Positions 3,528-54,320 are shown, counted from the stretch's first letter. The stretch: DNA of 64,000 nt from Macrostomum lignano (GCA_002269645.1 NIVC01001884.1:62001-126000), one strand, 5' to 3'. Numbers and translations: made by a program. Notes: generated by a model from the sequence alone, not told the origin.

Positions 3528-6502
3528 GAATTCTGCTTCTGAGGGTAATGTGGCTGCGGATACTGCGGCTGCATCTGCTGCGTTATTGTTGTTGTTGTTG
3601 TAGATGTCTAGCTGCTTTCCGGTGGTTTCCTTTCCACCACTCCTCCATCCCCTCCAGCAGCTGTCCAGAACCGGGCAGGCCACCACGTGCTCGATGGTCT
3701 CCTCCTCCATGCCACACTGCCTGCAATTTCCATCCTGCTGCAGCCCGATTCTCTTTCTAAACGCTGCCAGCTCCAGCGAGTGTCCCGTACGCCATCTTCT
3801 AAAACTAACCTCCTCCTTCCTGCTCGTGAACTCCGGTTCTTTCCTTGGTCCCTCCGAGCCGCCGTACGTTGCCCTCATCCTCTCGTGCCTCCACACCTTC
3901 CTTCTACTCCGCCTCCTCGCCATCCTCGCCATCGTGCTCGCCATGACTCCAATTCCTTCATTGCTCACTTCCCTGACCGCTCGATTAGCCCATTCGTCCG
4001 CCACTTCGTTCCCTACGATCCCGCAGTGGCTCGGTATCCACAGCATCACCATCTCCTGTGTGCATCACCATGCTGCAGACGATCGAGTTCTTGCTGGTCT
4101 TTTTTATAGCTTGGATCCCGCTTTTGCTGTCTGTCGCAATCACAGCTTTGTGCCAGTTGTTGTTAATCGCCAGCCATCTGATTGCCTCCTTCAACGCGTA
4201 CAGCTCCGCCTGCATCGAGGACGCGAGCTGTCCGCCGGCCACCATTTGCCTCTCGACCACCGCGCCGTTATCGTACTTCGTCACCACCACGCTTCCCCCT
4301 CCTTTGCCTCACTTATCAACCGAACCATCCGTGAAAATCAATATGTCCGCTCCGTCGCAAGCCGCTCTTATCCTGCTCTCTCCCATCCTCCTGCATTCCT
4401 CCTTCGTGTCTGGCCTTCCTCCCTCGTCATCGAATACCACGTGTCGTAGCTTGATCCATGGTGGTTCCTTTTCCGCCTCCGACAGCCTCGGCAGGTCGAC
4501 TTCCCATTCTGGCAGGTATCTGCGCGCCCAGGTCATCCAGCTGTCCCTTCTGAGCCTACTGACCGGTCCTTCGGTTGCAAGCCTCCATCTAATCGAACCC
4601 TCTTTCGCTCTCATCAGCCTATCCATCTTCCTCACAACCCGCCATCTTGCCAGCGCCTCCAGCTCATCCGTTCCCGACTCTTCCCTGACTCCGTCGATGG
4701 GGGTCGTGGCGAGCAGCCCACCGATTATTCTGGTTGCTCTGCGCTGCGTCACCTCAAGCTTGTGCCAGCACGCTCTGCTGATCCATGGCATCCATGCCGT
4801 GGCCCCATACATAATTTTACTCTCGATGAGGGCCACGTACGTCTGCCTGAGGAACCCACTTCTCCATCCCCAGTCACTTCCGGCCAGCCGTCTCATTATC
4901 TGTAATCTGCTTTTACAAGCTTTAGCCACCTCTTGCACGTGCTTTGCAAAACTCAGCCTCCTATCGTAGGTCACTCCTAGGAACATGGGGTGAGACACCC
5001 ACTCCATTTCTTCTCCGTTGATTCTGATGCTGATCTGCTTCGGCTCTTTGCACTTGCTACTCAGCACAAACAAGGTAAGCGTACATTTCTTGGCCGCTAT
5101 TGGTAGCCTCCATTGCGCACTCCACTCCTGCACCACACCGACCGCCTGTTTGATGCTGCTGGCTGCTTCCGCCTCGTCTTTGCTACACGACCAGCATGCG
5201 TAGGTCATCCGCGAAGCCACTCACCTCCATGTTCGGCATTCCCTCAATCCTCTGCAGCAGATCGTTAATAAAGATGATAAACAAGATCGGCGACAGCACC
5301 GATCCCTGCGGCAGCCCCTGCCTCATAACCACGCCTGCGCTATCTCTGTCCTGATACCTCACTCTGGCCATCCGGTTTTCCAGCTAACTTCTAACCCACT
5401 TCACCAACTTCGTGCTCAGGCCTTGCTCAAGCATCTTCCAAAGCAGCCCATGTCTCCACACTTTATCGAAGGCCCTCTCAAAGTCAAAAAGGGCCAGCAC
5501 TCCTTTCTCCCCCATCTGGAATGCGTCTTCCATCGCTTGCGTCAGCCTCAGCAGCTGGTCCTCGGTGGATCTTAGCCTTCTGCTGCTGCTATGCATCCTT
5601 CTGCTATGCATCTGCTGCTGAGCCGGGTACCTATGCTGGTTCTGCGGATGTGGCTGTTTACAATTCTTAGCTAAGTGACCTAGCTTGCCACATCTGTTGC
5701 ACGTCACTGGTGGACGCCTCTGCTGATTCTGGCCTTGCTGCTGCTGACCTGACGGTTGCTGCTGCTGCTTGACCTTTTGCTCAACATTCTGATGGTGTCG
5801 GAGTAACTCCTGAAGCACCTTCTGCTGATTCTCTAGCGCCTCACTCTGTTTGCGGACTAATTCCTTCAAGCCGTTCTCAGCCTCGTCTCCTCTAGTTGCC
5901 TTACACTGCTGCGGGTCTCTACCTCGGCGAGACATAGCGTACGCCATTTCGATACGTCGCAAGACTCGACGTGTCTCTTGAAGCGAGTTTACCTGAGCTA
6001 GCAGAAGCTTCTCTCTAGTCTCTGGAGCAACCCTAACACCTCTAATAAATTATTCCACCACCTTCCTGTCTCTGATCGTTAGTTAGATGGGGAAACGCCC
6101 TGCATGCTACCAAGGTAGCTCTGTTAGCTTCTCAGCGTAGTCATCAGTGCTTTCAGTTTTGCACTGGAACCTACTACGGAACTCTTCCCTAGCTTCTTGA
6201 GCACTACCTACATGCGTAAACCGCTCGATTAGCCTATCCTTAAATTCTGCGTATGCTAGATTAGGATCTAAATTTAGCCTTGTCACGATAGCGAACGCTG
6301 ACTGAACATCTAAGTTAGACAGTAGCTCATTCATCCATTCAGCTGCTAGTATCTCATCTGCGATACACCTCTGCTCAAAAGCTTGAATCCACACGTCTAT
6401 ATCCTGATTAGGCGTGTACTTTTGGATCCTAATATGTTTCCTAATGTCTAGCCTGTCTCTAATGCCTTCAGCCAGTGCTTCTACTACGTCATTAGCTTCC
6501 AT
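3479..6502 (-). pseudogene. gag: gag of element 1, split by the LINE insertion
   Basis: Capsid-like N-terminus (WIQAFEQRC...LIERF) at 6107-6502 and knuckle CNRCGKLGHLAKNC. The gag frame resumes after the LINE as QQMQPQYPQPHYPQKQNSGN...FQQ* ending at 3479. Confidence 0.8.
3582..5606 (-). mobile_element. 5'-truncated I-group LINE (RT, RNase H, CCHC) with a (CAA)n tail and 12-bp TSD
   Basis: Motifs FDFERAFDKVW, GLPQGSVLSP, FADDL, IFTDGS, AELYAL, TDSKS, WIPSHCGIVGNEVAD and CRQC...H...C. TSD TGCATCTGCTGC at 3570-3581 and 5607-5618. Confidence 0.9.
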
Positions 6503-6930
6503 ATTAGTTTAGTTTTTAGGTTGGATTTTAGAATTAACGCTTCTAAGTTATTAATTTTTGGCCAGTAAATTGGCAAGACTCCGAATTTAGCTGCTAGTTT
6601 TCCTAATGGTAAGAGTTTAGTTAATAAAATAGCATGGACTACAAATTTTATTACTTCCGCCTTACTTCTGGTCTTAATTGAGACCTTACTAATCTTCTAG
6701 TGAAGAAACTAAGTTAACAATTCTTTTCAGGAGCGTTAATCCGTTCCTAATCCGTTAATCCATTAATCTGAGATTAGACAACCTTAGATCAACTGACTAT
6801 GTACCTAATTAGTAAATCTGTGTTAGTTTTAGTTCTAATTCCAGCACATAGGAGTTAGTCCGTTAATCCCTTACTAATCCACTAATCTTCACTATGCACC
6901 AGTCTAATGCATGCGCTTCTCGGGTATTCT

Positions 6931-6949
6931 AATCCCACCACTGCCACCA
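6931..6949 (-). promoter_or_regulatory. Primer binding site complementary to the 3' end of tRNA-Leu
   Basis: Minus strand reads TGGTGGCAGTGGTGGGATT, the complement of the metazoan tRNA-Leu 3' end AATCCCACCACTGCCACCA. Confidence 0.85.
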
Positions 6950-6951
6950 AT

Positions 6952-7497
6952 TGGACAAGCGTGGTACCTGCAGTCTAGGCTTACTGGTTTTGTCTACTTT
7001 AGAACTTAGTGGATTTTCGGGGTATATTGGTAGATTTCGCTGCCACCAGTTTTCGCTGCCTTCCCTAATTCTGGTATTCAGATTTAAAGAATGGAGTCAG
7101 GACACCAACGAGATTTCAACAATTAATAAGGTTTTAATAAAAAAAGAAAAACGTTAACGTACAAAAGATTGGTTACATTAATTCCCCTTAATTCCTATTT
7201 TCCGTTTAATTGTGCTTGGGCAAGACTCCCATTAGTTTAGAGGCGAGACTCCTCTTGTGCAATCCTACTTTATAATTTACCTTTTATTTCCTTTTCTTAC
7301 CGAATTCCTTGTTATTCGCAAGACGCGCACGCAGGATGCTTTCCCTAGAGCCCAACTGCTCTGTAGTTCTTAAGGATCCCGAAAACTAGCGATTTACCCC
7401 TGCTCTAATTATTTCCCTGGGTTAAAACTACTGATAGTAGGCAAAAAGCATATTTCCCCGCAACTAATTCCCGTTCCTAAAATAATGCTCTACTACA
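6952..7497 (-). repeat. 5' LTR of element 1 (about 546 bp, TGTAGTAG...TTGTCCA)
   Basis: 3' end fixed by CA two nt before the PBS. 5' end inferred from TGTAG at the point where a PHD exon is cut off. Shares motifs (ccgttcctaa, ggagtcttgcc) with the element's leader. An internal TGTAACCA at 7177 is an alternative start. Confidence 0.55.
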
Positions 7498-7724
7498 CTA
7501 CTCATGTTGTACCGGAGGTCCTCGTTCGATAACTGTGAATGCATGCGTCATGAAACCATTTTGAACAGGTGTCGCAATCCGTCTGAAAAAGTAAAAAAAA
7601 ACAGGTCAATATAAACTTTTTATTTGTATAGTCGCATTAAGTACATACTATGATCAATACAAATAACACCACAAATTTAGCGTCCCTTTAACAAACAACA
7701 AAAAAGTACCATTAAGCAAATTTT
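7170..7724. repeat. About 554-bp direct repeat, copy 1 (copy 2 at 18816-19369)
   Basis: The copies are identical by eye except for one A in a poly-A run. Confidence 0.95.
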
Positions 7725-8293
7725 TGAAATACTTTTAATTGTTGTCTCAGCTCTCTGTCGGATCTGCGTCCGAGAATTCTAAGATTAAACAATGAGCGGC
7801 AAGTCCGACTGTGTTTTCCTGCGGTGTTAAACCTTCTCTTGAGATGGTATATTTCCAATCTAAATTACTGATGGAGTTCACGCAAATACAAAAGATGTAA
7901 GCTTCTTAAGTACAAAGTATGAAGCAGTCAGAAACTGAATTTATCGATACTTATCAGTACTCTCGGCTGATCTGGTGTTCGAGGCTAATGCCTGTATTGC
8001 TTGTCGATCAGGTGTGAACGGTAGATTTGATTGGCCTGGTTTCTATCAATGTCCTTAATTATTTTGCCAATAGGTCGGGAGTAGAGGAAATGGATAAAGG
8101 GTCTGTGAGCTGGCTAGAGTGTAAGAAGTACAAGGGGAGTTCCAAGAGAGGTCTAAGGACTGCTTCGTACTTTCGTGCATTGAAATACAGCGCGATGTTA
8201 GGCTGCTATTGGTAGCCTGCGTTTAGCGAATCAGCAGATGGAAGTGCATAGGTGGAGTTATGTGCTAAAACGCATGCGGTGGAAATGGCTACA
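7725..8293 (-). repeat. Candidate 3' LTR of element 2 (TGTAGCCA...GTATTTCA)
   Basis: Preceded by the purine tract GAAAAAGGGGCAATGAAA (8294-8311). Ends in CA exactly at the junction with the duplicated flank, with ATTAAA near the end. No second copy in the window. Confidence 0.5.
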
Positions 8294-8946
8294 TTTCATT
8301 GCCCCTTTTTCAACGAGCGAAGGTCTCCGAGCTCTCGAAAATTTTCTAAAAGATGACAAAACGGAGGAGCAAAGTGGAGTGTAATATGGTACATTGCTTG
8401 GGGTTTTTTGTAAAAATTTTTTTCGATCAAAATGGAAAATGGAGATTAAGGAAGAGAAGGAAAGATGATAAAGAGGAGGAGCTTGGATCAAGAGAGAATC
8501 GGAGAACGCGGTGTGACTATGATAAGTACCGCATGGAAGGTGGAAACATTGATGAAAGTTGTAGTGGCGAGACGGAACGGGGCTGGGGAGGGGGGGGTTG
8601 CGCGAAGTGTGAAGAGACGCGCGCGAGGGGGGGTGATAAACGGGCGAAGGAACAAACAAGACTGCGGTAATAAAATAACTGGCGGGGATCGCGAATGAAA
8701 AGTACGTGCATAGAATCGATAAAGCGTACATTGCTGTGCGGGGCGGGGTGATAATCGGAGAAGTAAAATTGGAGGTCCAAAAGGCGTATTTAAAGTCAAA
8801 ATTTAGAGAGGGAGAGGGATCGCTGGCTGCTGAGATCAAGGTTAGTGTCATAGTCTAGTGTTCTTTTCAGTTGTAACCGGTAAGTAATAGGCTAGTCCTA
8901 GCGTTTCTTAGGTTAGTTTTTTGCAAGTATTCAGGAAGTGATCAAC

Positions 8947-9150
8947 ATGGGAGATCTCGTCCTCGGCCGGGAGCAGTTCCGTGAGCTCGACCAAGTAGCC
9001 TGGACGGCCAAGGCTGGATTCGGACTGGGTGTCGGCGCCATCGCGTTGATTTTCGTCGTCCTGGTTGTCTGGTGTTTGTGCAGGTGCTGCTGTCGGAGAC
9101 ATCATCGGCAGTCGAATGCAGCGGCGACGGTTCGCGAGACCGAGGTGTAG
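8947..9150 (+). CDS. 67-aa single-pass transmembrane protein, antisense within the 3' region of element 2
   Basis: aacATGG start context. Translation MGDLVLGREQFRELDQVAWTAKAGFGLGVGAIALIFVVLVVWCLCRCCCRRHHRQSNAAATVRETEV. Upstream TATTTAAA at 8787, GTAAGT donor at 8880, TTCAG acceptor ending at 8934, GTAAGT donor right after the stop. Confidence 0.55.
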   Translation: MGDLVLGREQFRELDQVAWTAKAGFGLGVGAIALIFVVLVVWCLCRCCCRRHHRQSNAAATVRETEV

Positions 9151-9787
9151 GTAAGTAGTAGGGTAGGCGGTCTCAGCAGCCTATTCGCGGCGGAACTGAC
9201 GCTGTCGGTGATGATGCCGCGGTTTTGAACGATCCACCGGCCCTTTTCAGGGCCACCACCTGTAATGATGTTGTACATTTGCTGCTGGTGTCACTAGAGT
9301 TGTCTGAATGGTGTCGTTGTCGAGCCAGTCGAAGTGTAGGGCAGGGTCGGGCTGGATCAGGTTGAGTTGAGCGGGACCGTTGTCAGGACGTTTGTGTCTC
9401 AAAGAGACGAGCAAGAAGAAGGAGAGAGAAGGGGATCAAGAAAGTCGACTTGAAGTCGCCGTAGTTTGTGAGAAGAAAGTGAAGAATGATAAGTAAGCAG
9501 TCGTTATTTTGTAAGAACAAATATATGTCTTGTTGTGGCATAAATAGATATTGTAATCATAACTGGGTGTGGAAAATAGATGCCTAAATTACTATTTTGT
9601 TCTGTTTTGTCTTGGAATAGTTGTCTTGAGTCTTGAACTAATCTAACGCTAAGGAAGAAGTCAAGTGGATAAAAGTTTTAAAATGGGTGTCTGCGGGTAC
9701 TAAGAAGAAGAAAGTGAAGGCGGGAAGGTTTTGCTAAACTAAAATAACAATAATGGTAGCTTTTCGGTCCATTCTGTGCACGCGTGA

Positions 9788-12658
9788 TCACTCAGGATTG
9801 GCGTTGACGTAGACGTTGCGCGAACGTAGCTGATAGCGTGGTGCTGGTGTCGGTGTTGTTGGTTGAGTAGATGTTTGGTCAGATTGATCTGGGTCGTTTT
9901 GCGTATCATCAGTCTGCTGGCTGACCGTCTTTGTCAGCGGCTGTTGGTGGTTGTGGTGTTCTTGAGTCAGCGTCCGGGTGAGTTGAGGTAGAAATATCTC
10001 AACCGGGAGTTGATCAGGTGATGGTTTCAACTTGGAGGCGTGCGTGACCATTGGTGGAACATCCAGCTTGTTGATGTCCTGTATTAGAGCGTTCTGCGGT
10101 GATACCCACTTAAGGAGACGGAACGGTCCTCGATAAGGGTTAGAAAACTTTGAGGCTTTTTGTCCGGAGATCTCTAGGTAACAGCGAGAACCAGGTTGTA
10201 GTCGGTAAGTCGTTGGTGGAGTCTCCTCATTATGTCGTCGGGCTCGCTCCTCTGCAGTAGCGTGGAGGTAATGGAGGGCGACATCTCGAGCCAGAGTAAT
10301 GCTGGAGCAAATGGTTTCCAATGGTTTTATGTTTTCGGAGTAAACAGAGATCTGGTGATCAAGGATTCGCGTGCTCGGAGCTTGGAAATCGCGAGCAAAG
10401 AATAGGTAAAATGGTGATTCGCGCATCACAGTGTGGGCGGCAGTGTTGAGGGCGAGCGTCACTGCCGGTAGGTGCTCTATCCATTTGTCTGGCTGGTCGT
10501 GCACGAACGTAGTGAGTGCCTGCTTCAGTGTTCGGTGCGCTCTTTCGACGAAGTTGCTTGACGGCTGATAGTAGGAGGTATAGATTAGTTTAATTCCGAG
10601 GGCTGCCATATAGTCTCTGAATTCCGTAGAGATGAACTGTGGTCCGTTGTCTAGGATGATGTTAGCAGGTATGCCAGCGAGTGCGAAGACATGGCGAAAT
10701 AGGTGTTCACACACCGTTGACGATGTTGTGTCAGCTAGTGGGATTGTGAAGAGAAATTTGCTAACTCCGCATTGTGCCGTCAAGATGTACTTGTAGACGT
10801 CTCGCTGATGGTGTGCAGATGGTAGTGGACCGACCAGGTCGATGGCTAGGTGTGAGAAGACGTTAGCGAACTTAACTGCTCTGAGTTCAGGGTGGATTTT
10901 TCGACCAGGTTTCGCTCGATGGCAGATTTCACATTTCTTGACGTAGTCCATGGTGTCATTGTAACAGTTCGGCCAGTAGTAGTATCGAGAGAGCCGTAAC
11001 CAGGTTTTTTCAAAACCGAGGTGGCCGCCAAACGGTGAACTGTGACTCTCATTTAGTAGGGCCTGCTGATATTCGGTTGGGATTACTAGTCGCAGGTTGG
11101 AATTGCCCTTTGCTGACTCATAGTAGAGTGTTTCGTTCGCGTAATGGTAATTGTCAATGTGATTCCGTACATATCTCAGGTCTCTCTTTGGTAAGGTTTG
11201 CGACTGGTCCTCACCATCTCCGCTTAATAGAAAAATTATTGTGGCATATAGCGGTGATTGTTTGACGGCTTCCCGAAGTTTTTGAAACGTGGGGATCGGA
11301 TGCAGCAGTTGTACCTCCGGAATTCGCGATAGGCAATCGGCAACGGTATTCGCCTTTCCGGTAATGTACTTGAGTGTAAACTGATAATCCTGTAGATATA
11401 GAATCCATTTTTGTAATCGCCGGGACAGTGGTTGTTTGTTAGCGAAAAGCGATTGCAGCGGCTGGTGATCAGAGTAGATGGTGAACGGCTGGTAAGAGGC
11501 ATACAAGAAGACATGGAGTTTCTTGATCGCCCAATAGATCGCATAGGCTTCTCGTTCGATTGCCGGGTATCGTTGTTCAGTGGCCGATAGTGTCTTCGAG
11601 ATGTAGGCCACAGGTTGTTGGTGTCCTTCGGAGTCTACTTGGGAGAGTACAGCGCCGATAGCCGTATCCGAGGCGTCAGTGTGGAGGACATACGGCTTGT
11701 AAGGGTCCGGGTGGACTAGTCGGATGTCGGTGGTGAGCATATTTTTGAGTAGATCGAATGCTGACTGCTGTTCCTTGTTCCAGATTATCTTTTTCGTCTT
11801 GGATGCGTTTCGCAGGGCGTTGAGCAGTGGTGCGACTATTGTGGAGTATCCCTTGATGTGCGTTCGATAGAAGTTCGCCATTCCTAGAAAAGATTGTAGT
11901 TGTTTCACTGTCGTTGGGATCGGAAATTTGTTGATTTTCTCAACCAGGGATGGTGCTGGTCTGATGCCGTCTTCAGAGACTTGAAAACCAAGATATTGAA
12001 CTTCCGGTTTCGCAAAGACACATTTTCGAAGTGAAATTCTAAGTCCATGTTGTCTCAGTTTGTGTAGGAAGTGTTCGAGCTCAACCATCATGCCGTTAAA
12101 GTCTCCAGAGATTAGCAGTATGTCATCCAGATATGCGATTAGGTTTGGTGAGTCCGCAGTTAGTAGCGAGACGAGACGACACATGATGCTTGGGCTTGAT
12201 TTGAGACCTTGCGGAAGTCTATTGAATTGCCAAAGAAGTCCGTTTGGCGCAATGAAGGCTGTGTACTTTGAGCTCTGTGGATCCAGTCGAACTTGATAGA
12301 AGGCGTCGGCGAGGTCACAGAGAGAGAACAGTTTTGCGCTTCTCAGCCGGTGTAGTAGGTCAGGTATTTTCGGAGGTCGTATGCTTGGCGTGCTAATGAT
12401 CTTGTTCAATCTGCGGAAGTCGGCAACGAGGCGGAGTTGTCGTCGGCCTTGTTCATCGAGTGTTTTCTTTTCGACAAGTAGACATGGGCTGGAGTATTCG
12501 GATTCACTCGGGCTGAGGATGCCTTTCCGGACGAAGTTGTTTATTAGCTCGTCAAAGCGCTCCTGTAGGCCATGTGCGATTGGGAATGGACGTGATGTGA
12601 TTGGGTCTGAATGCGGGTGGACACTAATTTTGGCTGTGTATTGCGTCGTGCAGCCCAT
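9788..12658 (-). CDS. pol: RT-RNase H-integrase of element 2 (open frame, catalytic motifs intact)
   Basis: YSSPCLLVEKK, DFRRLN, YLDD, LHTDAS, H-H-C-C (HSSPFGGH...CEIC), IDLVGP, LDNG, NFVER, and GPY/F-type YRGPF. Confidence 0.95.
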   Translation of the reverse strand: MGCTTQYTAKISVHPHSDPITSRPFPIAHGLQERFDELINNFVRKGILSPSESEYSSPCLLVEKKTLDEQGRRQLRLVADFRRLNKIISTPSIRPPKIPDLLHRLRSAKLFSLCDLADAFYQVRLDPQSSKYTAFIAPNGLLWQFNRLPQGLKSSPSIMCRLVSLLTADSPNLIAYLDDILLISGDFNGMMVELEHFLHKLRQHGLRISLRKCVFAKPEVQYLGFQVSEDGIRPAPSLVEKINKFPIPTTVKQLQSFLGMANFYRTHIKGYSTIVAPLLNALRNASKTKKIIWNKEQQSAFDLLKNMLTTDIRLVHPDPYKPYVLHTDASDTAIGAVLSQVDSEGHQQPVAYISKTLSATEQRYPAIEREAYAIYWAIKKLHVFLYASYQPFTIYSDHQPLQSLFANKQPLSRRLQKWILYLQDYQFTLKYITGKANTVADCLSRIPEVQLLHPIPTFQKLREAVKQSPLYATIIFLLSGDGEDQSQTLPKRDLRYVRNHIDNYHYANETLYYESAKGNSNLRLVIPTEYQQALLNESHSSPFGGHLGFEKTWLRLSRYYYWPNCYNDTMDYVKKCEICHRAKPGRKIHPELRAVKFANVFSHLAIDLVGPLPSAHHQRDVYKYILTAQCGVSKFLFTIPLADTTSSTVCEHLFRHVFALAGIPANIILDNGPQFISTEFRDYMAALGIKLIYTSYYQPSSNFVERAHRTLKQALTTFVHDQPDKWIEHLPAVTLALNTAAHTVMRESPFYLFFARDFQAPSTRILDHQISVYSENIKPLETICSSITLARDVALHYLHATAEERARRHNEETPPTTYRLQPGSRCYLEISGQKASKFSNPYRGPFRLLKWVSPQNALIQDINKLDVPPMVTHASKLKPSPDQLPVEIFLPQLTRTLTQEHHNHQQPLTKTVSQQTDDTQNDPDQSDQTSTQPTTPTPAPRYQLRSRNVYVNANPE

Positions 12659-15600
12659 ATCGGTTGGCAGGAGGGCCAGTTGTCACGAAATCGGGATAGA
12701 ATTTCAACTACTTGTTTCCGTTGGTCCGGTGATAAGTGTTGATTCTGCTCATCTAGTTGTTTTCTGATAAGGTCTTCGTCGCTTTTTGTCATATCAGGAG
12801 TGACATCCAAGGCGTTGATTTCTGTTGTGGCTGGCGCTGAGGCTAGCGTATAGTCTGCTGGGTCTGATAGTGCGCCGAGATGAGTTCGGGCATATAGCGT
12901 TACGGGTTGAAGTGTCGGGTTTGAAATCTGAAGCAGTATTGAGCGTCCGGTTTTGTCAGTCTGGCATAATGATGCTGCTAGAAGTAGCTTGTAGCGTTGC
13001 ATCGTATGGTCATTTGGTATAAATAGGACTGGCTGTAGCGGTGTGCCAGGTGTGGACAATTCGGCTGACACCCATGTTGTTGTCTGTGCTGGGATGTGGG
13101 TGGCTTTCGGAAGTTGGACGTTGACTGTGTTCGCTGGAACAGTCATCGTACTGAGCATCGGAAATGTTGTACCATCGATTTGGGCTTCCGATTTGTTATA
13201 GTCGATCGTTAGTGGTATATTGAGCGTCTTGAAGGTCTCTACTCCGAGGATGAGATCATATTCTTTGGACATGTTGTCCAGAACGAAGGCAGACATTTTG
13301 TGTTCCTTTGAGCCAATCAGTATGCGGAAGCTGGCTTCTTTCTTAATGTGGATCAGTTGTCCGCCTGCACATTGCACGTGAAGTGAGTGTGGTGTGATCT
13401 TGGCGTTCAGTTTCTGTGCAAAAGTCGGTGAGATGCAACTAATCGAGGCGCCGCTGTCGATGAGAGCCGTGCATTTGTGTCTTGTCGCTGGAGGCATGGT
13501 GCACCATAGTGTTATCAACGTGCGCGTGGTGAGATGTTTTAGGACGGTGTTGTATGCGATCGGCCATGGAGGAACCGGTGGTTTAGGCGCTGGTAGTGGT
13601 TTCCTCGTTGTCGTAGAAGGTGTCGGTGTTGGTTCGGTCTGCTGTGCTGTCGAGGTTATTTCGATTGGCGGTGCTGACGGGGCGGCTGGCGGAGCCCGTC
13701 GTGGCGGTGATGAGTTTAATAGTACCATTGGTAGTTGGTTTGGAGTTCGAGTGGGTGAGGATGCATGGCGCCGTCTATTCCTTGGGGTATCTGTTGTTCG
13801 GAGGACCATCAGACGGTGCGTACGTCCGTATCGTACCGTGGTCGCGACGCAGAAACGACCAATATTGCAGATGAAGATTAGTAGCGCGGCATATACAATG
13901 ACCGCGGAGCTGAACAGAAAACGTTCCATGTGGTTGTCGCGGAATCGTTCCCAATTAAAGATGGTGGTGCTCCAGAGATTCTTAAATGCTTGTGTAGCGT
14001 CCAGTCTGAAGCTTGAGGCGTCCGCCAGCAGTTCTTGGCGGGTTTTGTTGTTGTTCAGCTTAAAGACAGTAACTAGGAAGTCTCTTGTTTGCATGAATTG
14101 TTCCATCATGTCGGTTACGGTGACCGGACTTCGCAGAGTACTGTAGTTGACATCGCCAATGGGTGTGAAAATGCTCCGTCTCAGGTCGCTATAAAGTGAT
14201 TGTAGAAGGTACGTTTCGTCGGTGACCTGATGTGAGTCTAGTTCGCGAATGTCGCTGAAATTGGTCGTTGCTTTGAAGATAGAGGTATTTTTCGGTAGAT
14301 AGTATCCATCTTGATATTCGCACGGTATTAGTGGTGGTTTGGCGGTTGAGACGATGAGCGTGGTGGTATCCAGATAAGCTAGTACGCTCCTGTTTTGTAG
14401 TTGAAATTTCATAGGTGGTCGCGTATAACATCTATTGGACTTGTACTCCGGTTGGACGAATGTGAAGTCGTAAAGTGGTTTGCATTGATGTACGAAAAGG
14501 TGACCAGCGATCGACTGAGCGTATAAGAAGCGGTCGTTGAAGAGTTGTCGTGCAGCCAGTGTCGGATTGGTGTAGTACAGTGTGCGACTGTATCTCAGGT
14601 TGAGGGCGTACATTTTGCATTGTGTCTTAGTAAGTTGCGTGTGTAATGTCTTGAGGTCTTGGTGTAATTTCATCTCGAGGGCTTGTAGGCGGCTGGAAAG
14701 TAATTCTGCTGAGGCCAAGTTTGTAGATAGTTGAGGTGCTGATTGGTTGTCGGCGGGCGTTTCACTTGAGCGTCGAATACGTACTTTGTCTAACGTCGGC
14801 GGTGCGTCTCGTTGTAAATATGGTATTGCCAGTGGATCATATTGATATTCTTCGGTTTGTGGTGTTGTGACGTCCGTTGGCGGATCGATTGACATTGTGT
14901 GGGTTCTTCGGCTTGTCAATGGAGTTAGAGCAGTTTCCGTTAATCTTGGAGGTTCCGATGTCATCACTGTCGATGTTTGCGGTTGCGTTGTGGTTGTGGA
15001 GGCCACCAATTGTGTCGTTGGTGTAGGACTGTCCGTGATTGGTTTCGTCGTGGTCGTCTCTTGCGTTGTTGGATCAGTTTTCGTCGTCGTTTGGTGCGTA
15101 GTCGTTCGGGTCGTGTCGGTCGTCGATTTTACGACTGTCGTTGTAGGACTTGTAGGATTGGTTGATGTCTTCAGCGCATCTGTTGTTGTTCGTGTGGTCG
15201 GCGTCGATTTCAGCGTAGTTGTGCTGGTAGCTGTTGTGGTGGTACTCGTCCTTGGATTTGTTAATGTTGTCGATGTCGTCGGTGTCGTTGATGTTGTCGG
15301 TGTCGTCGTCGTTGTCGATGTTGTCGATGTTGTCGGAGTTGGGGAAGTTGTCGAAGTTGTCGCAGTTGTCGAAGTTGCCATGGCGATTTGTTTGTAGGGT
15401 AGTGAACGGCTAGGACGGGATTTTGTTTCTGCCGTACTGGGAGTGGCGTCCGATGACTGGTTTGTCTGAGCAGTCGGAGTTGGAGGTGTTGGCCTTATCG
15501 CATTAAGGAAGTGTTGTTCTTGTTCAAGTACTTCGACGTAAAGTCCTTGCTCGGAAAGGTAAAGCTTTTTGGTGCCAGTGGAGCAGCTAAGAGTGTGCTG

Positions 15601-16722
15601 AAGTGGTGTAGGTGCAAATGTTAAAGCTAGCGTTTGGTCGTCGTTGATGAAAAAGTTGGAGTGCTGTAGTCCATTCAGCGCGCGGAACGGTATTAATGAA
15701 CAATCTGATTGTGGTGGTACATTCCAAGACAACGTTAGTTTTCGCTCGCCTGCTGCGTGGAGAGTGGCGACGGCCGGTGGAGTTAGTTGTTTCCAGGCCT
15801 CTGTCAGAAGCTGATGTGGTAGATTAAAACGCATCATCTGTTCCACAGTTGTCGGGATGGTGCAGCCTTTTGTTGAATAGACACAATGTTTGATTGGAAA
15901 CGCCAGTGATTCCATCGGATCTGTTGGACTAGCAAAAGCGGCGATGTTAGTAATCAAGGTGGATGCCGTTATCGTTTGAGTACGAGAGGCGAGGCAGTTG
16001 TCCAGCAAAGTTGTCTGTATGGCTGACCGGAATATTTGTTGGCCAGAAACTGTGGCTACTATTTGTAGTTGGCCATCAGGTGAATTTCTGGACTCGACCC
16101 ATTGTAGACAAGCGAGTGGCGTTGTCGGTTTCGGTTTCACAGTTATGTGAGCTTCACGAAAAGTGCGTAGGTGTGAGCCAAGACGATTGCAGTTTATAGT
16201 TATCTCTTCCCGATAACAAATGTTCATCATTATTCGGGTCTTTGCTAGGTTAGAGGTGTAGAGCCGTAGACGCATTGGGATAGCTCTTGTTTCTTGCGGG
16301 TTGAAGGACTCGCACCGTATTTCGGTAGGGATCTTGAAAATTCGAACTGGGCCGTTGAGCGGGCAGACCATTGGTGTGTCGACAAATGTCGGGTGATCGA
16401 GTGGTGCCGTTCCGTTACGTGTTTCGACACTTCCGATCAGAGTGGTGATCAGTAAACCAAGGAGTAATACGCCTAGTTGACCGTGAGTGTTTGGATGAGT
16501 CGTCTTGCGGGCCGGTTGTCTCAGAGAACGCTGAGTTGTGGGCGCGCAGTCTGGGCAGTCGGGAGTCCAGGGGACGACCTGGATGCCCATGACTTCGGCC
16601 TTGGTGCTCTGCTGTCGGCGCTTAAGGGCACGCAGGAGATTGTATTGCGGTCCAGTCCCGGTGAAGTAGTATGGTCCACTACTTACTGGAGTAGACACAT
16701 TGACTTCCGGCTTTGATTCCAT
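12544..16722 (-). CDS. Fused envelope-like glycoprotein plus aspartic protease (1392 aa)
   Basis: Hydrophobic signal aa 82-101, Cys-rich ectodomain, Thr/Pro mucin aa 411-625, RPSR and RIRR furin sites, NPTLAARQLF...AGHLFVHQC, TM aa 935-953, then ALIDSGASISCI (D at 13456-13458) and LILGVETF. Confidence 0.85.
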   Translation of the reverse strand: MESKPEVNVSTPVSSGPYYFTGTGPQYNLLRALKRRQQSTKAEVMGIQVVPWTPDCPDCAPTTQRSLRQPARKTTHPNTHGQLGVLLLGLLITTLIGSVETRNGTAPLDHPTFVDTPMVCPLNGPVRIFKIPTEIRCESFNPQETRAIPMRLRLYTSNLAKTRIMMNICYREEITINCNRLGSHLRTFREAHITVKPKPTTPLACLQWVESRNSPDGQLQIVATVSGQQIFRSAIQTTLLDNCLASRTQTITASTLITNIAAFASPTDPMESLAFPIKHCVYSTKGCTIPTTVEQMMRFNLPHQLLTEAWKQLTPPAVATLHAAGERKLTLSWNVPPQSDCSLIPFRALNGLQHSNFFINDDQTLALTFAPTPLQHTLSCSTGTKKLYLSEQGLYVEVLEQEQHFLNAIRPTPPTPTAQTNQSSDATPSTAETKSRPSRSLPYKQIAMATSTTATTSTTSPTPTTSTTSTTTTTPTTSTTPTTSTTLTNPRTSTTTTATSTTTLKSTPTTRTTTDALKTSTNPTSPTTTVVKSTTDTTRTTTHQTTTKTDPTTQETTTTKPITDSPTPTTQLVASTTTTQPQTSTVMTSEPPRLTETALTPLTSRRTHTMSIDPPTDVTTPQTEEYQYDPLAIPYLQRDAPPTLDKVRIRRSSETPADNQSAPQLSTNLASAELLSSRLQALEMKLHQDLKTLHTQLTKTQCKMYALNLRYSRTLYYTNPTLAARQLFNDRFLYAQSIAGHLFVHQCKPLYDFTFVQPEYKSNRCYTRPPMKFQLQNRSVLAYLDTTTLIVSTAKPPLIPCEYQDGYYLPKNTSIFKATTNFSDIRELDSHQVTDETYLLQSLYSDLRRSIFTPIGDVNYSTLRSPVTVTDMMEQFMQTRDFLVTVFKLNNNKTRQELLADASSFRLDATQAFKNLWSTTIFNWERFRDNHMERFLFSSAVIVYAALLIFICNIGRFCVATTVRYGRTHRLMVLRTTDTPRNRRRHASSPTRTPNQLPMVLLNSSPPRRAPPAAPSAPPIEITSTAQQTEPTPTPSTTTRKPLPAPKPPVPPWPIAYNTVLKHLTTRTLITLWCTMPPATRHKCTALIDSGASISCISPTFAQKLNAKITPHSLHVQCAGGQLIHIKKEASFRILIGSKEHKMSAFVLDNMSKEYDLILGVETFKTLNIPLTIDYNKSEAQIDGTTFPMLSTMTVPANTVNVQLPKATHIPAQTTTWVSAELSTPGTPLQPVLFIPNDHTMQRYKLLLAASLCQTDKTGRSILLQISNPTLQPVTLYARTHLGALSDPADYTLASAPATTEINALDVTPDMTKSDEDLIRKQLDEQNQHLSPDQRKQVVEILSRFRDNWPSCQPIWAARRNTQPKLVSTRIQTQSHHVHSQSHMAYRSALTS

Positions 16723-16753
16723 GGCCTTGTCGGCACCCGTCGGCTGCGGTTGT

Positions 16754-17933
16754 TCAGTACTGGGGGGGTGCGCTTGTCGTCACGACCTGTAGGGCGTTCA
16801 GCGAGGCTGCTGGGGCTCGCGGTGACGGCGATCGTGAGTGGCTTCCGTTTGATCTGTTTGGTCCATAGGAATTTCTGTTGGAGAAGCGGACCTGTCGTCT
16901 GTCTGAGTGTTGATATTTGATTGCGCGGCATTCTCTGGTATCGTGAGATGTTGTGCGGTGGAATTTGCAGTACTTTTTCTCAATCCCACGAGTGGAAGGT
17001 GATTGTGAGCGCTGGCGTTGAGGGTTCTGGTCAAATCTCCTTTGACGGCAGTCTCTGGCGATGTGGCCGACCTTGTTGCAGTTGTAACATTCGCGACTGG
17101 AAGGTCGTCTGGGTGGTTGAGGCATAGGCGTCTGGACAGCGGCAAGTGTAGGTTTTGTAGTCTGGTTCCCGGACTCTAGGGCGGCTAATCGTTTTGTGAG
17201 CTCGGCCATTTCAGTGGAGGCTGTGGCTTGAGTATTGTCTCCGATTTGTTCTGCTCGGATGGCCTGGCTCAGTAACTCTTGTTCCGTCTGGATTGGGATA
17301 CGCATCAATTCTCGGCGAATGTAGGGTAACGTCCCGTTCAGAATATTGGCAATCAGTGTCGTTGTAAAGTCATTGTCCCGTTGGCGGATTACAGCCTGGT
17401 TGGGCGGTTCGTGGAGGCCGTCGGGAATTGGCTCCGGTGCGATGGCGGGGTATACCGTGCGGAGTTTTTTTGCGGACGTCACTGAAGTATTGAGTGAACG
17501 ACTCGCCGGGCTGTTGTCTTCGATTTGCAATTTGTTGCAGAAGTGAGGTGGATCCGTTTGTCAGGTCTCGAATGCGGGCACGCATGTGCTCAAGCATGCC
17601 CGTGTAGGTACCTTGTTGCGCGGGCGTCAAATTGGAGAATTCGATTTTGAGCAAATCGTTTAAGAATCGCGGGAAAATTCGAAGCTTAGTATCATCATCC
17701 AAGTTGAAAGTGCGGGTGGCCAGGTCAAACTCCATGACAAACGTCGCGAAGCCGTGCAATTGATCGATATCCTTCAGGGCTTCGCGGATTTCGTTGATCG
17801 TCGATGATGATACTGAAGGCGTCGGTCTTTGGGCTGGCTGCGCGGCACCAAGCTGTTGTAGTAGTTGCTGTTGCTGCAGCTGCTGTTGCTGTGTAAGGTT
17901 TTGGATGAGCTCTTGCAGCTGGTTGGCATCCAT
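16754..17933 (-). CDS. gag: gag of element 2 (one +1 shift at an A7 run)
   Basis: ATG at 17933 (MDANQLQELIQ). Capsid-like QQPGESFTQYF, knuckle CYNCNKVGHIARDC, and a second CKFHRTTSHDTREC motif. Confidence 0.88.
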
Positions 17934-18815
17934 GATGATTTCCGGTACAAACAGATAGGCTGGTGGTGAATAACCAGAGGGCCAAGCAGTTGGTGAAGTA
18001 GTTACGTCGGGAGTAGAGCCGGAAAGTCGTCGGGTACTCGAGGTTGTGTTGTCAAGTGCTTGGTCTGTGTCAGCGGCTGGCGCTGAGTTTCGTTGCAATT
18101 TGCGCGATTTAGCTGTAGGGGATTGTGATGCTGCTCGTCGACCAGAGCGTAAGAGCATGCAGGATCCTGCTATCAAAAGAAGTGGTTCTGGGTTATAATA
18201 AGAGTATGAGAAATAATTGAATTAAGCAATATTTTGAGAATACACTGAGCATTATAGCATCTGGGTCGTGTTTATCTGGACTATCCCTTTGGTCATCATT
18301 TTGTAATATCGGTATGACGTGTAATGAGAATTCTGACATGTATGCACACGAGTGACTACTGCTTAAGTAGTATCAGACGAAAGTCAAACAGAATATATGT
18401 GTATCAGCGTATTGATCAAAATTGTAGCCTGTAGACTTTTGTAAACGAATACGAGCATCTATTGCAAAATAGGCTATACGACAGGGCCACAGACTACAGT
18501 GTGGGCTTGCTAGGAAACGGTACGGCGGATGCCACAGGTGTGTTTGTGGGCTTAGTACTTGAGACGATACAGCGAGTGCCACAGGTGCGTTTGTGGGCTT
18601 ATTGCGCGAGTTCGGTGCACGAACTGTAATGTGTGATGAGTTGCCAGCCAGGAATGAATGTCGCGGCAGGGCGACCGTCGCAGCTTGTGCGACCTTTTAA
18701 CCGGAATCGCCGATTTGCGATCTCCGACCAGCTCTTCGGGCACAGCTTGTGTGGCCGGGTTAACAACTGAGTGCCACTACCGAATTAGTGGCCGCCACGA
18801 CTGGGTGGCTTCACG

Positions 18816-19369
18816 TGGTTACATTAATTCCCCTTAATTCCTATTTTCCGTTTAATTGTGCTTGGGCAAGACTCCCATTAGTTTAGAGGCGAGACTCCTC
18901 TTGTGCAATCCTACTTTATAATTTACCTTTTATTTCCTTTTCTTACCGAATTCCTTGTTATTCGCAAGACGCGCACGCAGGATGCTTTCCCTAGAGCCCA
19001 ACTGCTCTGTAGTTCTTAAGGATCCCGAAAACTAGCGATTTACCCCTGCTCTAATTATTTCCCTGGGTTAAAACTACTGATAGTAGGCAAAAAGCATATT
19101 TCCCCGCAACTAATTCCCGTTCCTAAAATAATGCTCTACTACACTACTCATGTTGTACCGGAGGTCCTCGTTCGATAACTGTGAATGCATGCGTCATGAA
19201 ACCATTTTGAACAGGTGTCGCAATCCGTCTGAAAAAGTAAAAAAAACAGGTCAATATAAACTTTTTATTTGTATAGTCGCATTAAGTACATACTATGATC
19301 AATACAAATAACACCACAAATTTAGCGTCCCTTTAACAAACAACAAAAAAGTACCATTAAGCAAATTTT
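18816..19369. repeat. About 554-bp direct repeat, copy 2
   Basis: Matches 7170-7724. It consists of MULE intron and PHD exon sequence plus the first 327 bp of the element 1 LTR. Confidence 0.95.
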
Positions 19370-20960
19370 AAAATTGGGATGATTGCTGAAATAATAAACC
19401 AAGTAAGAATAATATATGAAAGTTATCATAAGGCGATACAGATAGGAATTTTCTCGAGTCCCATTTTCAAGTTTTAAATCAGGCTCTTGCTTTCCAAGCA
19501 ACTCACCCAATTATCTTCTGTCTGTTTTTCGTCTTGTGCGGGACCCTCCTCTTTCCCGCACATCCAGCATAGGTCGTCGGAATTAGGTGCCCTCTGCAGT
19601 AAGTCACACCACATCTTCATTCGCTTCAAAGACATTACTCTAGGCGCTGAGTTGAAGTTAAGTGGCTTGTTGGACAGAATCCTCTTCGCAAATTTAACGA
19701 CAGGAACACCGCAACTGCTACCATCTTGCTGGAGCGCGTGATGCAAAGTGGTTGGCTTCAATTCGCACCAATGGAAGCAGCGCCTCAAAGAGCTAGTAAA
19801 AATAGGAAAGGCAAAATTAAACTTAATGTAGAATTTTATTATAAGCTGGTAAAAAAGCGTACAAGACTAGTAAAAATCTGTATTTATTGTTCAAAACTGT
19901 TAGGAAAATTTTAAACATCAGTGAGCTAATTTATAAAGATCAGTGAAAACTTTATCGTCCTGTCTTAAACAGCTATACAGCAGCCAAATAAATTATAAAA
20001 GCATGTAACTCAGTCTGTTTCTGCAGCTTGCAATTGATGATTTGAAGCTTTGAAGCTATCGAAGTGGGATTGGTTATCTATATAGAATATTTAATTGACT
20101 TTGATCTTATTCAGCAGATTTGTGCACCTGTTTCATCGTCCTTCATAGCCATCTGTATGCATATTATTTCTTCTAACGTACACGACAGAGAGACTGATAT
20201 ACTATCAAACGTCTATTGAGGTAAAGCTATCCGATTTTAATTGAATTTTGGCCTTACTTAGCGATAAGACGTATCTATATATGACGCACAGTACAAAATC
20301 ATTCTATCCAAGCTGCAAAAACACAACTAATGAAAAACGAGCAATCGCATGCTCGTGAAATTTGATTTACATGAATATATCTCCAATCATAGAAGTAAAA
20401 CATGTCGCATTGTGAAAAAATGCTTGTGAAAAATCTATGTCGTTCTCAAAAAGCATAAAAAGACAACAATCGCTTACTTAAAATTAACGCAGAACGGTTC
20501 GTTCAAATTCTCTGATGACGCGAGAGGATCCATAACAGTTACGATTCCCTTGATAAGGTCGACAAAAAAGGAGCATGAAATTGTCATGTCGATAGACCGT
20601 GCCGATAATGATGGTCCTTGCCTACAAAGAGAAGTTGGTAACTGAGAATTTCAGCAGTTAGAAAGTCTTGAGCACTTAGTTTTCCAAATATTTTCCACAT
20701 TAACTTTAAAACAAGCCGGAGTAATAAAGTTTTATTGACCACAATTTTAGACCGGTAATATCAGAAGCAAAAGGACAAGACTTTATACCTGAAGCAGTTT
20801 TTAATTAATTCTGGCTTATAATCATTTTGCTCTCCATGGAATATCGCATCCACTTCGTAATGCATAAGGGAAACACCCCGTCGTGCTGAGGGGCAGCCGC
20901 GGCGATTAGTAAGTTTAGAATCTAAATGAAAATTTTGAAGAAACATTCTTAGATTCATAA

Positions 20961-22107
20961 AAGCTTAATATCAACATTTGAATATGATTGCAATTTCTAA
21001 AAACTTTGCAATTTCTAACAACTTTAACGCGTTTCGCACGCCATGGTGCATCGTCAGGATTTTATTAGAACGATTTGAGAAATTGAGATTGAAAGCGATT
21101 GATTAAATATTGGTTCCTCACCAGACTGTTCCATCAAAATGACTACCCCGTTTGTCTGGTCCAAGAAATCATCAACAAGTTCATCTCGGACAAAATCACC
21201 AAACAAAAACCTGAGCAATCTGTTACCACTGAAGAATTTGAACCCATTCTGCGTCTCCCCTTCCTCGGACCTCCATCTCTAGCCTTTAAAAACAGAAAGC
21301 GTAGGTTATTCTTTGCCTCTTTCAATCGTAACATCCGGGTCGTCTTCCACACGAACAAGATTGGGAACTTTGTTAGCAGATTAAAGTCGCGTGTTCCTTG
21401 TACTCTGCGTGCAGGTGTTGTCTACCAATTTAACTGCTCTGTGGACCAGAGCGTCTCCTACGTGGGGAAAACCAAAAGACACCTACACACGAGGAATAGG
21501 GAACACTGGCTCAAACCATCTGCTATACAAACTCACCTCCTTGAATGCACTAACTGCAATGACTGCAAACCAGAAGAACACTTTAAAATCATTGACCAAA
21601 GTCATACTGACGCCAAACTTAGAATTCTCGAGGCCCTGCACATAAAAGCTCAGACCCCGAATCTCAACACCCAATTACAACATAGTGGTGCAGGTCACGT
21701 TCTCCGCGTTTTCTGAACAGTGAGTGACACCGTCGTGCACGCTGTGTACACTTAGCTTGACGTTCAGTTACTTAAGCTACCGCCCCTGATTCTGCCTTTT
21801 GACCACTGGACAAGAATTGTGTACATTTGGCTTAACTTTCAATCTCAATCTATAATTCTCTCTCCTACCTACTATACCTATGTATGTTGTTAAAGCCAAG
21901 TTGTAATCAATTGTTTTCAATCTTACCCTCCTTACCTGTGTACGTTGCAAAAACCAATATTTAATCAATCGCTCTCAATCTCAACCTCTCAAATCGTTCT
22001 AATAAAATCCTGACGATGCACCATGGCGCGCGAAACGCGTTGAAGTTGTTAGAAATTGCAAAGTTGTTAGAAATTGCAATCATATTCAAATGTTGATATT
22101 AAGCTTT
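20961..22107 (+). mobile_element. 5'-truncated Penelope-like element (GIY-YIG endonuclease) with inverted terminal duplication
   Basis: ORF 21099-21716 has LRLPFLG, GVVYQFNC...SYVGKTKRHLHTRNREH and ILEALHIK...PNLN. 20961-21115 is the reverse complement of 21952-22107. Confidence 0.88.
21997..22054 (+). ncRNA. Type I hammerhead ribozyme-like motif of the Penelope 3' end (mirror copy at 21013-21070, minus strand)
   Basis: CTGACGA, then stem II, then GAAA, then palindromic ACGCGT. Stem I can form between TTCTAATAAAATC and GAAGTTGTTAGAA. Confidence 0.6.
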
Positions 22108-22319
22108 CTATTTATTCTTCTCGCCAAGCGAGCGACTCTACCAGCATTCTTAGATTTACTCGTTGCTACTGTAAATAGCAATAAAAAATTACGGCAGCTT
22201 AAATTAAGACTTATCCAGCTGTGCTCAGTAAGAAGTGACTGGCGATCGTAGCGTCTAATAGTAAACATACCATACTTCTCTTCGGTAACGAAACAAGTGA
22301 CAACTTCATCTTCTTCATT

Positions 22320-22580
22320 AGCGCCCTTCGGCTCTGGATCAGCGCTCTTCGGTTCTTCATCAGCGCGCTTCGGCTTGGACTTAGCGCTCTTCGGCTCTGC
22401 ATCAGCGCTCTTCGGCTTGGCATCAGCGCTCTTCGGCTTGGCATCAGCGCGCTTCGGCTTGGACTTAGCGCTCTTCGGCTCTGAATTAGCGCTCTTCGGC
22501 TCTGCATCAGCGCTCTTCGGCTCTGCATTAGCGCTCTTCGGCTCTGCATCAGCGCCCTTCGGCTTGACATCAGCGGTCAT
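22320..22580 (-). repeat. 21-bp coding tandem repeat (PKSADAE-like, about 12 units) in the MULE ORF
   Basis: Repeated gcgctcttcggctctgcatca-type units. ORF 22086-22580 stays in frame and continues into an Ulp1-like N-terminus (QSLLTEHSWI). Confidence 0.85.
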
Positions 22581-24289
22581 CGGCTTGGAGTTGGCTTGCT
22601 TAATTTCTTCGCCGCTGCTGTCAGTCTTGATAAAATGACAGTTTCGGTAGTGCCAGGACGTCTGACTTGCGACTGCCTTAAGTCCTTCCGACTAGGCGTC
22701 TGAACAGCAGATATACGCAATCGCGCCTGGATAAATTTTTTGCGACGGAAGGTCGGACGCAGTTGGAAGGGAATAGTCTTACGCAAATAAGATGGCTTGC
22801 AACCTCTTTTAGCCCAAGTATCACCATTTGGGCGATGCGATGCACTTTATCTGATTTCGGACGTCTTGATAATCTTGGGGGCAAAACTTGCTGCTGCTCG
22901 TGGTTTACTCTACTGATTCTTTGCTTTACACAATCTAACTCTTCGCGTAAAAGCCTGCCAATTTTCAGCTGCGAGCCTTTGCGCCGGCGTACTCGGGTTT
23001 TGACCCATCGAAACAACGTTTCAACTGAAGCGTTTGCGTTTTTCGCGGTACAACTGTTACTCAGCATTTGACAGACACTCCAGAGTGGTAAAAGTGGCAA
23101 ATAAAGTCTGAAGATCTTCAACATTGCTTCTGGTGCAAAATTGGGGTTTTCTTCGCAACCTTCTTGCGCTGCATCCTGATCGACCAGTTCTGGCACTTGA
23201 AAAGGCTTAGCGAATGGTGAGCTGCTACGAAGTGAAGGTCCTAATCCCTCAAGGCAAGGATCATCTGGAACTGGTTCTACAATCTTCTCTGGGTCTTCAT
23301 CGGTGATTTCTGTAAAAAAAACCATCACAGCTGTCAGATAGACTTTCGGTGTGCCGGGAAAGAACTGAAAATGCTTGCTGAACTTCAGGAGTAAGATAGT
23401 TGCTCAGAAATACTTGAAGCATAGCCTTCTATATAGAATTCACAGAGCTGATGCTGTCTGCAGTGATGAGTTGCGCAAAGAGAGTCTGAAATGTCCGCCT
23501 CACGATTTGTTCTTTATGCCAACAGCCAGTGCAACACAGTGCAGCAGATGTGAACTGCAGATAAAAACGATTGGATGCCTTGGAGGCTGGCATCAGCAGC
23601 AGTTAAACGCTTGTATTGTTTTTTCCAGGTAGGTCTCCAAGTCCATAATACGCGCTGCTCGAACAAAACCATGCAAAAAAACCCAACTGAAATCAGTGAC
23701 GAAGACGCGGGGTCCCACTTTACCTGCTTCCCAAATTCCGCGATCACTAAAGCGAGCGAAATTGAGCAAAAAGGAATCAATCCAAGCAGTTACATATTCA
23801 GTCTTTGTATACTCTTCCGTAATTGGCGTTAAAATAACAGATTCTGTTCTTACAACCATACTGTAAAGAAACACCTTTTCTGGAACGAACTCAGACCTTT
23901 GCACAAGACTGCCAGTTGCATCGACAAAAACAGGAGTGTAAGGATCTTTTCTAAGCAACTGACTAAGCGGGTGCTGCTGATCGGAGCAGTAGAAAACAAC
24001 TCCAAAAGGGGCCAAATTGATGCGCTGGATATAACCTGAAACACATTCGCTGGGCTGCATAGAAGCTTTCGACTTTCGAAGCTTTCGAGACTCGAAACTT
24101 TATACACGATTGTGTCAAAATAGTTGAAAATTGGATTGTGTCCAATTTGAAGAGGATTGGTAAAGGTAAAAGTGGAGCGACGCTATAGAGGACTTAGTGA
24201 AATTCTTGCGAAACTGGACAAGCAAATTGTCTCTAGCTAATTACAACTTCCTGAGTTCGGCTAGCCAAATTGCTGCTTGCCGGCTTTGG

Positions 24290-24465
24290 TTGGGTTCTCG
24301 CTAGCAGATTTCGGCAAGCAAAATCCTCGCTAGCAAAATCCTCGCTAGCAAATTTCGGCTAGCAGATTTCGGCTAGCAAACTTCGGCTAGCAGATTTCGA
24401 CAAGCAACTTTCTCGCTAGCAAACTTCGGCTAGCAGATTTCCTGCTAGCAAATCTCGTACTCCCA
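24290..24465. repeat. Degenerate 14-bp GCTAGCAAA(C/T)TTCG-type tandem array
   Basis: Directly visible. It lies at the 5' side of the MULE transposase. Confidence 0.8.
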
Positions 24466-54012: not shown

Positions 54013-54320
54013 GCTAGCAAACTTCAACTAGCAGTTTTCGGCTAGCAAACTTCAGCTAGAAGGTTTCGGCTAGCAAACTTCAGCTAGAAGGTTTCGGCTA
54101 GCAAACTTCAGCTAGAAGGTTTCGGCTAGCAAACTTCAGCTAGAAGGTTTTGGCTAGCAAACTTCAGCTAGAAGGTTTCGGCTAGCAAACTTCAGCTAGA
54201 AGGTTTCGGCTAGCAAACTTCAGCTAGAAGGTTTCGGCTAGCAAACTTCAGCTAGAAGGTTTCGGCTAGCAAACTTCAGCTAGAAGGTTTCGGCTAGCAA
54301 ACTTCAGCTAGCAGGTTTCG
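54013..54320. repeat. 28-bp tandem repeat GCTAGCAAACTTCAGCTAGAAGGTTTCG, about 10 copies
   Basis: Units recur every 28 bp from 54041 to 54293. Each is made of two 14-bp halves. Confidence 0.95.

Follow-up and report, generated by a model that had tools for sequence, protein, structure and literature searches.

A decayed, probably GAG-ENV-POL-type Ty3/Gypsy element of Macrostomum lignano and its single-frame relatives

The window, i.e., the whole stretch of 64,000 nucleotides of Macrostomum lignano DNA analysed here (GCA_002269645.1 NIVC01001884.1:62001-126000), holds an LTR element on its minus strand, the features of which are collected in Table 1. Its coding part is covered by four minus-strand frames (17370-18221, 16754-17560, 12544-16779 and 9788-12682). 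The third of these, 1411 aa long and free of stops, joins env by way of a Pro-rich linker to the protease, as a first-pass annotation of this DNA had described. The order gag (zf-CCHC), env, PR, RT, RH and IN given in that annotation is borne out by Pfam, and the hydrophobic segment, the transmembrane (TM) segment and the DSG motif lie exactly where they had been placed. The env-PR frame contains exactly two hydrophobic segments. Three features go beyond the earlier description, namely a Thr-rich insert of ~250 aa, a furin-type RIRR motif and the missing 5' LTR.

Table 1. Features of the element and its surroundings, in positions of the window.
Feature	Position	Strand	Basis or remark
Ty3/Gypsy LTR element, 5'-truncated	7725..18818	-	past 18818, other copies continue with a leader and 5' LTR of their own
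3' LTR, 574 bp, TG...CA	7725..8298	-	solo copies with 4-bp target duplications
Purine tract, adjoining the 3' LTR on its upstream side	8299-8311	-	
Flanking direct duplication, 555 bp	7170..7724 and 18816-19369	.	99.8% identical
gag piece one, capsid region, Met at 17933	17370..17933	-	open frame to 18221
gag frame break	near 17465	-	
gag piece two, CCHC zinc knuckle (17092-17042) and a second, CxxH-type knuckle, stop at end	16754..17560	-	PF00098, E 1.5e-7
gag/env frame break in a homopolymer run	near 16765	-	
Internal signal-like hydrophobic segment after basic residues	16420..16479	-	hydropathy 1.93
N-terminal half of Env, rich in beta structure, with Cys conserved between families	15469..16416	-	pLDDT mostly 80-97; alignment; fold matches
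Thr/Ser/Pro-rich, presumably mucin-like insert in cleavage loop	14719..15468	-	65% S+T+P; pLDDT <50
Furin-type RIRR ending the insert	14781-14770	-	
Env C-terminal half, long central helix, predicted class III fusogen	13930..14718	-	Pfam and predicted structure
Transmembrane stop-transfer segment, then Cys and basic residues	13864..13920	-	hydropathy 2.36
PSAP, presumably late-domain-like, in Pro-rich TM-to-protease linker	13669..13680	-	
Aspartyl protease, DSG at 13458, env frame	13228..13479	-	PF13975, E 2.4e-7
PR/RT frame break	near 12680	-	
RT (12445-11978), RNase H (11707-11384), integrase (11083-10562)	frame 9788..12682	-	Pfam

The PR-RT-RH-IN order of Ty3/Gypsy elements (Metaviridae) is present (Pfam), and the Pol is nearest to Ty3 Gag-Pol in the PDB (E 4e-91), retroviral reverse transcriptases reaching 1e-33 or weaker. 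The RT motif is YLDD; the BEL form, in the passages available of PMC9094657, is YVDN. An LTR with TG...CA ends, a primer site, a purine tract and a short target duplication, all expected of Ty3/Gypsy elements, are likewise found in the family, the window copy itself being without a 5' LTR. Among the six LTR loci listed, five show 4-bp target duplications, two of them at one and the same site; at the sixth, a 5' LTR precedes a primer site that matches a genomic tRNA-Glu. Measured against other copies, the window copy, which ends at ~18818, also lacks ~2.6 kb of leader. The 555-bp direct repeat, the final 330 bp of which are a separate repeat, was rejected as the LTR of the element, because other copies lack it and carry the different 574-bp LTR.

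The truncated copy sits between the two arms of this duplication, and rearrangement or faulty assembly has therefore affected the 5' end of the locus. This would suit an isolated insertion of a gene for a viral glycoprotein, or a chimera created in assembly, a reading which is already refuted and to which we give practically no weight. When contigs of four public runs were aligned to 6900-19600, one short-read contig of 8,748 nt from an independent run was found to cover 8708-17455 with both env boundaries, so that neither boundary is a chimeric join, the flaw against which the first-pass annotation had cautioned. Other contigs and other families carry env in the same place between gag and PR, and the order is common to five families and to homologues outside the genome. 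RT lies downstream of env at 108 of the 125 env loci listed and upstream at none, 17 loci having neither, and the arrangement is therefore not an isolated insertion, nor is it a chimera. At 48 of these 125 loci env and RT share an open frame, which in 16 cases measures at least 2400 aa. All of these counts are lower bounds. Seven of 132 env rows were dropped as second fragments of counted loci, and the pairing left out 36 of 151 RT rows that were not near env matches or not listed. Nor are copy and locus counts independent, since many loci are nearly identical including their flanks (C114, C45 and C1272 are 96-98% alike, and C2285 and C4060 99.97%).

At least five divergent families of this type of element are present in the M. 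lignano genome, and in relatives found there a single ORF of 2500-2860 aa encodes Gag-Env-PR-RT-RH-IN. At locus L031, a single frame of 2859 aa contains two knuckles, env, TM, PR, RT, RH and IN; L045 (family D) is a single ORF of 2538 aa and L046 an ORF of at least 2371 aa within the stretch examined, both with all domains in order. The env of L045 and L046 has diverged to 28-31% identity, and the window family shares with family D 46% identity in RT and 28-29% in env. A database protein identical to L031 is labelled Macrostomum lignano and was the sole return of a word-index homologue search. Outside the genome, 76 proteins matched the ectodomain, of which 28, picked mostly by length, were scanned: 16 match the viral fusion family PF24664, five of them above its cut-off, and the protease follows the env match in all 14 that have a protease. 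One of these, P0003, seems to be a family D gene model and not an element from outside the genome. The outside homologues include a Globodera protein of 2517 aa with the same order, whose RT is 29% identical to that of the window family and is separate from it in a small, midpoint-drawn 10-row tree without named reference clades, which serves no claim of ancestry.

The window copy itself departs from the continuous polyprotein that had been proposed for it. Its frame breaks at three places, inside gag, between gag and env and between PR and RT; gag is divided between two frames and ends at a stop off the env frame, RT-RH-IN is separate, and no full polyprotein can therefore be encoded there. 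Seven other contigs of the window family were compared across these places. The gag break is open in three of the four contigs with both anchors; across TM/PR, four of six contigs are in frame, three of the four with a stop; and across PR/RT one of four is in frame, again with a stop. At the PR/RT break, the length found in contigs of all four public runs disagrees with that of the window, pointing to an assembly error, while at least two of the four runs differ from the window at each of the gag and gag/env breaks, which may be real in some copies. Since the window copy and all seven other copies examined are broken or deleted, a single ORF is something that we infer for the window family, having observed it in its relatives.

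A single ORF in the DNA might still be expressed in split form, with splicing or slippage in the gag/env homopolymer yielding excess free Gag, or Gag-Pol without Env, and the full membrane-bound polyprotein being a minor product. Capsids require far more Gag than Pol; moreover, the gag/env break is common to the window and C4060/C2285, and the run in which it lies varies in length among read contigs. The Cer1 element, a single-ORF gypsy element, also yields a spliced product according to the part of PMC10309623 consulted. Yet of six other contigs of the window family only two are shifted across gag/env and four are open, the frame is unbroken there in families B, D and E, and the joints seen in contigs of runs guessed to be DNA or left unlabelled correspond to genomic deletion copies. 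We therefore consider split expression rather unlikely, and translation of the whole frame as one membrane-bound polyprotein remains the preferred reading.

The capsid region of Gag finds no sequence match in the PDB. For a Gag model from a sister family, all listed fold matches are capsids, retroviral and Arc capsids among them; they are weak, with E values of 0.011 or higher. Env is better resolved. Neither the whole env-PR frame nor the whole ectodomain matches a fusion family in Pfam; the C-terminal half alone matches PF24664 (E 8e-5, under its curated cut-off) and PF00606 (E 0.043). In a structure predicted for the natural ectodomain sequence from an alignment of 34 sequences, both halves are confident, residues 317-566 are disordered and a helix spans residues 570-616. 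The PDB fold matches listed are all herpesvirus gB (the best being HSV gB, E 8e-14), with a TM-score of ~0.3 by query length. In a library of viral structures, the leading matches are gB and the glycoproteins of nyamiviruses, rhabdo-like and chuvirus-like viruses, nyamivirus G being second-best. The ectodomain thus has the fusogen fold that the first-pass annotation had called for, and the assignment of env as a class III fusion protein resembling herpesvirus gB and nyamivirus G holds at the level of predicted structure and fold matches, low TM-scores included. As to the eight N-glycosylation sequons from which a glycoprotein had been read, they are present, but their number is at chance level for the composition (2000 shuffles give a mean of 8.6 with sd 2.4, and eight or more in 66% of cases) and they were discarded as evidence.

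Three contigs (C114, C45 and C1272) carry copies in which ~1.2 kb of env is missing, and these may go back to one duplicated insertion. Such losses would be expected if env were a passenger without a role in fusion and the element were mobile only within cells. Compared with family B, however, env has a pN of 0.23-0.33 against a saturated pS of 0.71-0.76 (PR is alike, 0.26/0.77), and since pN lies well under pS, env has been under purifying selection. In addition, its cysteines, cleavage site and TM are kept in an alignment of five families, and env is retained in the 16 long open frames, which makes a passenger very improbable. The Thr-rich insert, which we take to be mucin-like, is confined to families A, B and C (52-71 S+T per 100 aa, against 17-29 in 24 other sequences) and is absent from families D and E in the alignment; among copies of the window family, its length varies in frame.

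The linker between TM and protease contains short motifs which we presume to act as late domains. P(S/T)AP occurs in five of 20 sequences, where shuffles predict 0.35, and PPxY in four of 20 (0.73 expected); YPxnL was dropped as a candidate (two of 20, 1.3 expected). P(S/T)AP is present in four of the five families of the genome, family E being the exception, and in none of 14 outside database proteins. As kin share motifs, the excess of P(S/T)AP and PPxY is to be taken as a lead.

The sequence fits the topology proposed in the first-pass annotation, in which Gag would be cytosolic, an internal signal would be followed by a luminal Env and a stop-transfer TM, and Pol would hang from the Env tail. 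Of 20 relatives with knuckles, 16 have a similar hydrophobic segment after the last of these, family B falling below the threshold, and net positive charge precedes the signal in 14 of these 16, a figure counted without a chance control. For the working of the element, cleavages by signal peptidase, a furin-type protease and the element's own protease are taken as assumptions. Gag would be synthesized in the cytosol until the internal signal enters the ER and the ectodomain is translocated; the TM would then halt transfer, so that linker, PR, RT, RH and IN stay in the cytosol on the Env tail. Signal peptidase would cut between Env-Pol and Gag, leaving the latter tethered to the membrane, and the fusogen would be primed by furin-type cleavage. 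In this way, Gag and Pol could be brought to the membrane that bears Env without a matrix domain, budding could proceed through ESCRT recruited by P(S/T)AP or PPxY in the tail, and the element protease would subsequently release Gag and the enzymes. By analogy with the errantiviruses of Drosophila, the likely role would be cell-to-cell spread towards the germline.

A further proposal is tentative, and we think it more probably wrong than right. The Env tail would stand in for both the matrix and the late domain of Gag: with Pol and P(S/T)AP/PPxY carried on a trimeric fusogen, the clustering of Env would drive budding, package Pol and join the protease monomers, while in a flatworm sub-lineage the cleavage loop would have gained a mucin-like shield in the style of filoviruses. 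If true, assembly driven by the Env tail would be a route not found for reverse-transcribing elements in the literature searched. That literature, outside which most subscription journals lie, likewise yielded no report of a single-ORF retroelement processed by signal peptidase, of a late-domain motif in such a tail or of the ~250-aa Thr-rich insert of the three families.

We regard the window element with good confidence as a decayed, 5'-truncated Ty3/Gypsy copy of GAG-ENV-POL type whose env is gB-like and belongs to class III, with intact relatives that have Gag-Env-PR-RT-RH-IN in one ORF and with the proposed membrane-based working outlined above. The first-pass annotation knew of no description of this architecture, but GAG-ENV-POL Ty3/Gypsy elements with a gB-type ENV are reported from Nematoda, Bryozoa and Platyhelminthes in the passages available of Chary and Hayashi (eLife 2026, PMC13524379). 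The window element resembles these in its Ty3/Gypsy pol, its gB-type env between gag and pol, its ectodomain between two hydrophobic segments and its LTRs. An ENV of HSV/gB fold with flanking signal/TM segments, which marks the class in those passages, is present, and the intact ORFs flanked by two LTRs that also mark it are lacking in the window copy. Nine flatworm elements are catalogued there, one of them from Macrostomum lignano with 16 copies and an 863-bp LTR. This is probably family D, because the primer-site sequence of the catalogued element precedes the L045 ORF by ~580 bp; 31 of 200 shuffles match at one mismatch, and the weight of the match lies in its position and exactness. The published primer-site pattern was not found in the first 44 loci. 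The window family, with its 574-bp LTR and tRNA-Glu primer, differs from the catalogued M. lignano element and is not among the nine flatworm rows in the part of the catalogue available. As far as the accessible text goes, the word "polyprotein" is absent from the journal version and "frameshift", "splic" and "mucin" from the preprint, and the passages contain no topology model (PMC13524379). The architecture is thus real, the copy broken and the gene order already published, and only some details are new. With this order known, the value as a discovery is modest. The elements bear on the processing of an env that lies within a polyprotein and on particle assembly, and concrete predictions follow from the late-domain motif of the tail and from the mucin-like insert, which is specific to a lineage. 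M. lignano is a small culturable flatworm with at least five divergent families, and native RNA and protein can therefore address env processing.

The nematode elements of Sacco and colleagues are said to have one continuous gag-env-pro-pol ORF and a nyamivirus-like glycoprotein. The nyamivirus G fold match and the 2517-aa Globodera protein are consistent with this description. The window element has a flatworm host and an RT only distantly similar to that of the Globodera protein, which would place it outside that nematode NERV clade. In the passages available, PMC13524379 credits these non-canonical nematode ERVs, with the same flipped env/pol order, to Sacco et al. (2022, doi 10.1099/jgv.0.001739). 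Atlas virus, a BEL/Pao element, also encodes its Env as part of one polyprotein of 2828 aa, uninterrupted by stops or introns and in the order Gag-Pol-Env, and the premise of the first-pass annotation that captured env genes are usually expressed by splicing is accordingly too broad; unlike the window element, Atlas virus has a BEL/Pao pol and a class II phlebovirus-like env at the C-terminus (PMC9094657, in the part consulted). With herpesvirus gB and the G proteins of nyamiviruses and chuviruses (PF24664), the window Env shares the predicted fold, the long central helix, the cleavage loop and the C-terminal TM, whereas it differs from these class III fusogens in being only 8-11% identical to them, in lying within a retroelement polyprotein and in its 250-aa mucin-like insert.

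Internally deleted derivatives of the element's family are found on six genome contigs of G000 (C3805, C2285, C4060; C114, C45, C1272) and are of two kinds. In the first, about 1 kb of gag is missing, including the zinc knuckles, while the second lacks about 1.2 kb of env. The joints of both deletions are also present in contigs from the public sequencing runs.

In place of its own 5' LTR and leader, the main element is flanked by a 555-bp duplication (window 7170-7724 and 18816-19369, 99.8% identity). The final 330 bp of this duplication are a repeat present at many loci, which is probably the LTR of the neighbouring element. The duplication itself could reflect misassembly, or it could have arisen when a template switch joined an empty allele to a filled one. 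The long 5' leader of the family, as seen at element locus L037, contains an ATG frame of 164 aa (5660-6154) that is missing from the window. Where a copy has its gag frame closed by a stop, a PPxY-like motif (window 16754-16770) would form the Gag C-terminus; this ending may be due to chance. Two gag-env-type proteins, P0028 and P0014, are entered in the database as hypothetical proteins of bacterial MAGs, and their source is probably animal DNA in MAG bins.

Further transposon remains and repeats in the window, with putative transposon labels assigned by reading motifs, including the names of parts within 231-6508
Feature	Position	Strand	Remarks
Second gypsy-like element, decayed	231-6508	minus	gag, protease and RT pieces; no env visible
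Non-LTR RT/RNase H fragment	about 3378-5575		interrupts second gypsy-like element
Transposon fragments	25379-26527, 27529-28494, 34037-39059, 48513-49656, 62184-62912		frames among them integrase-like, hAT-like and DNA-transposon-like
Inverted repeats	20960-22107		156 nt each, spaced 836 nt; enclose 207-aa frame
Tandem array	22276-22664		21-nt units
Tandem array	24312-24426		14-nt units
Tandem array	53952-54374		14/28-nt units
Tandem array	59371-59609		33-nt units

The frame enclosed by the inverted repeats resembles the end of a GIY-YIG endonuclease.
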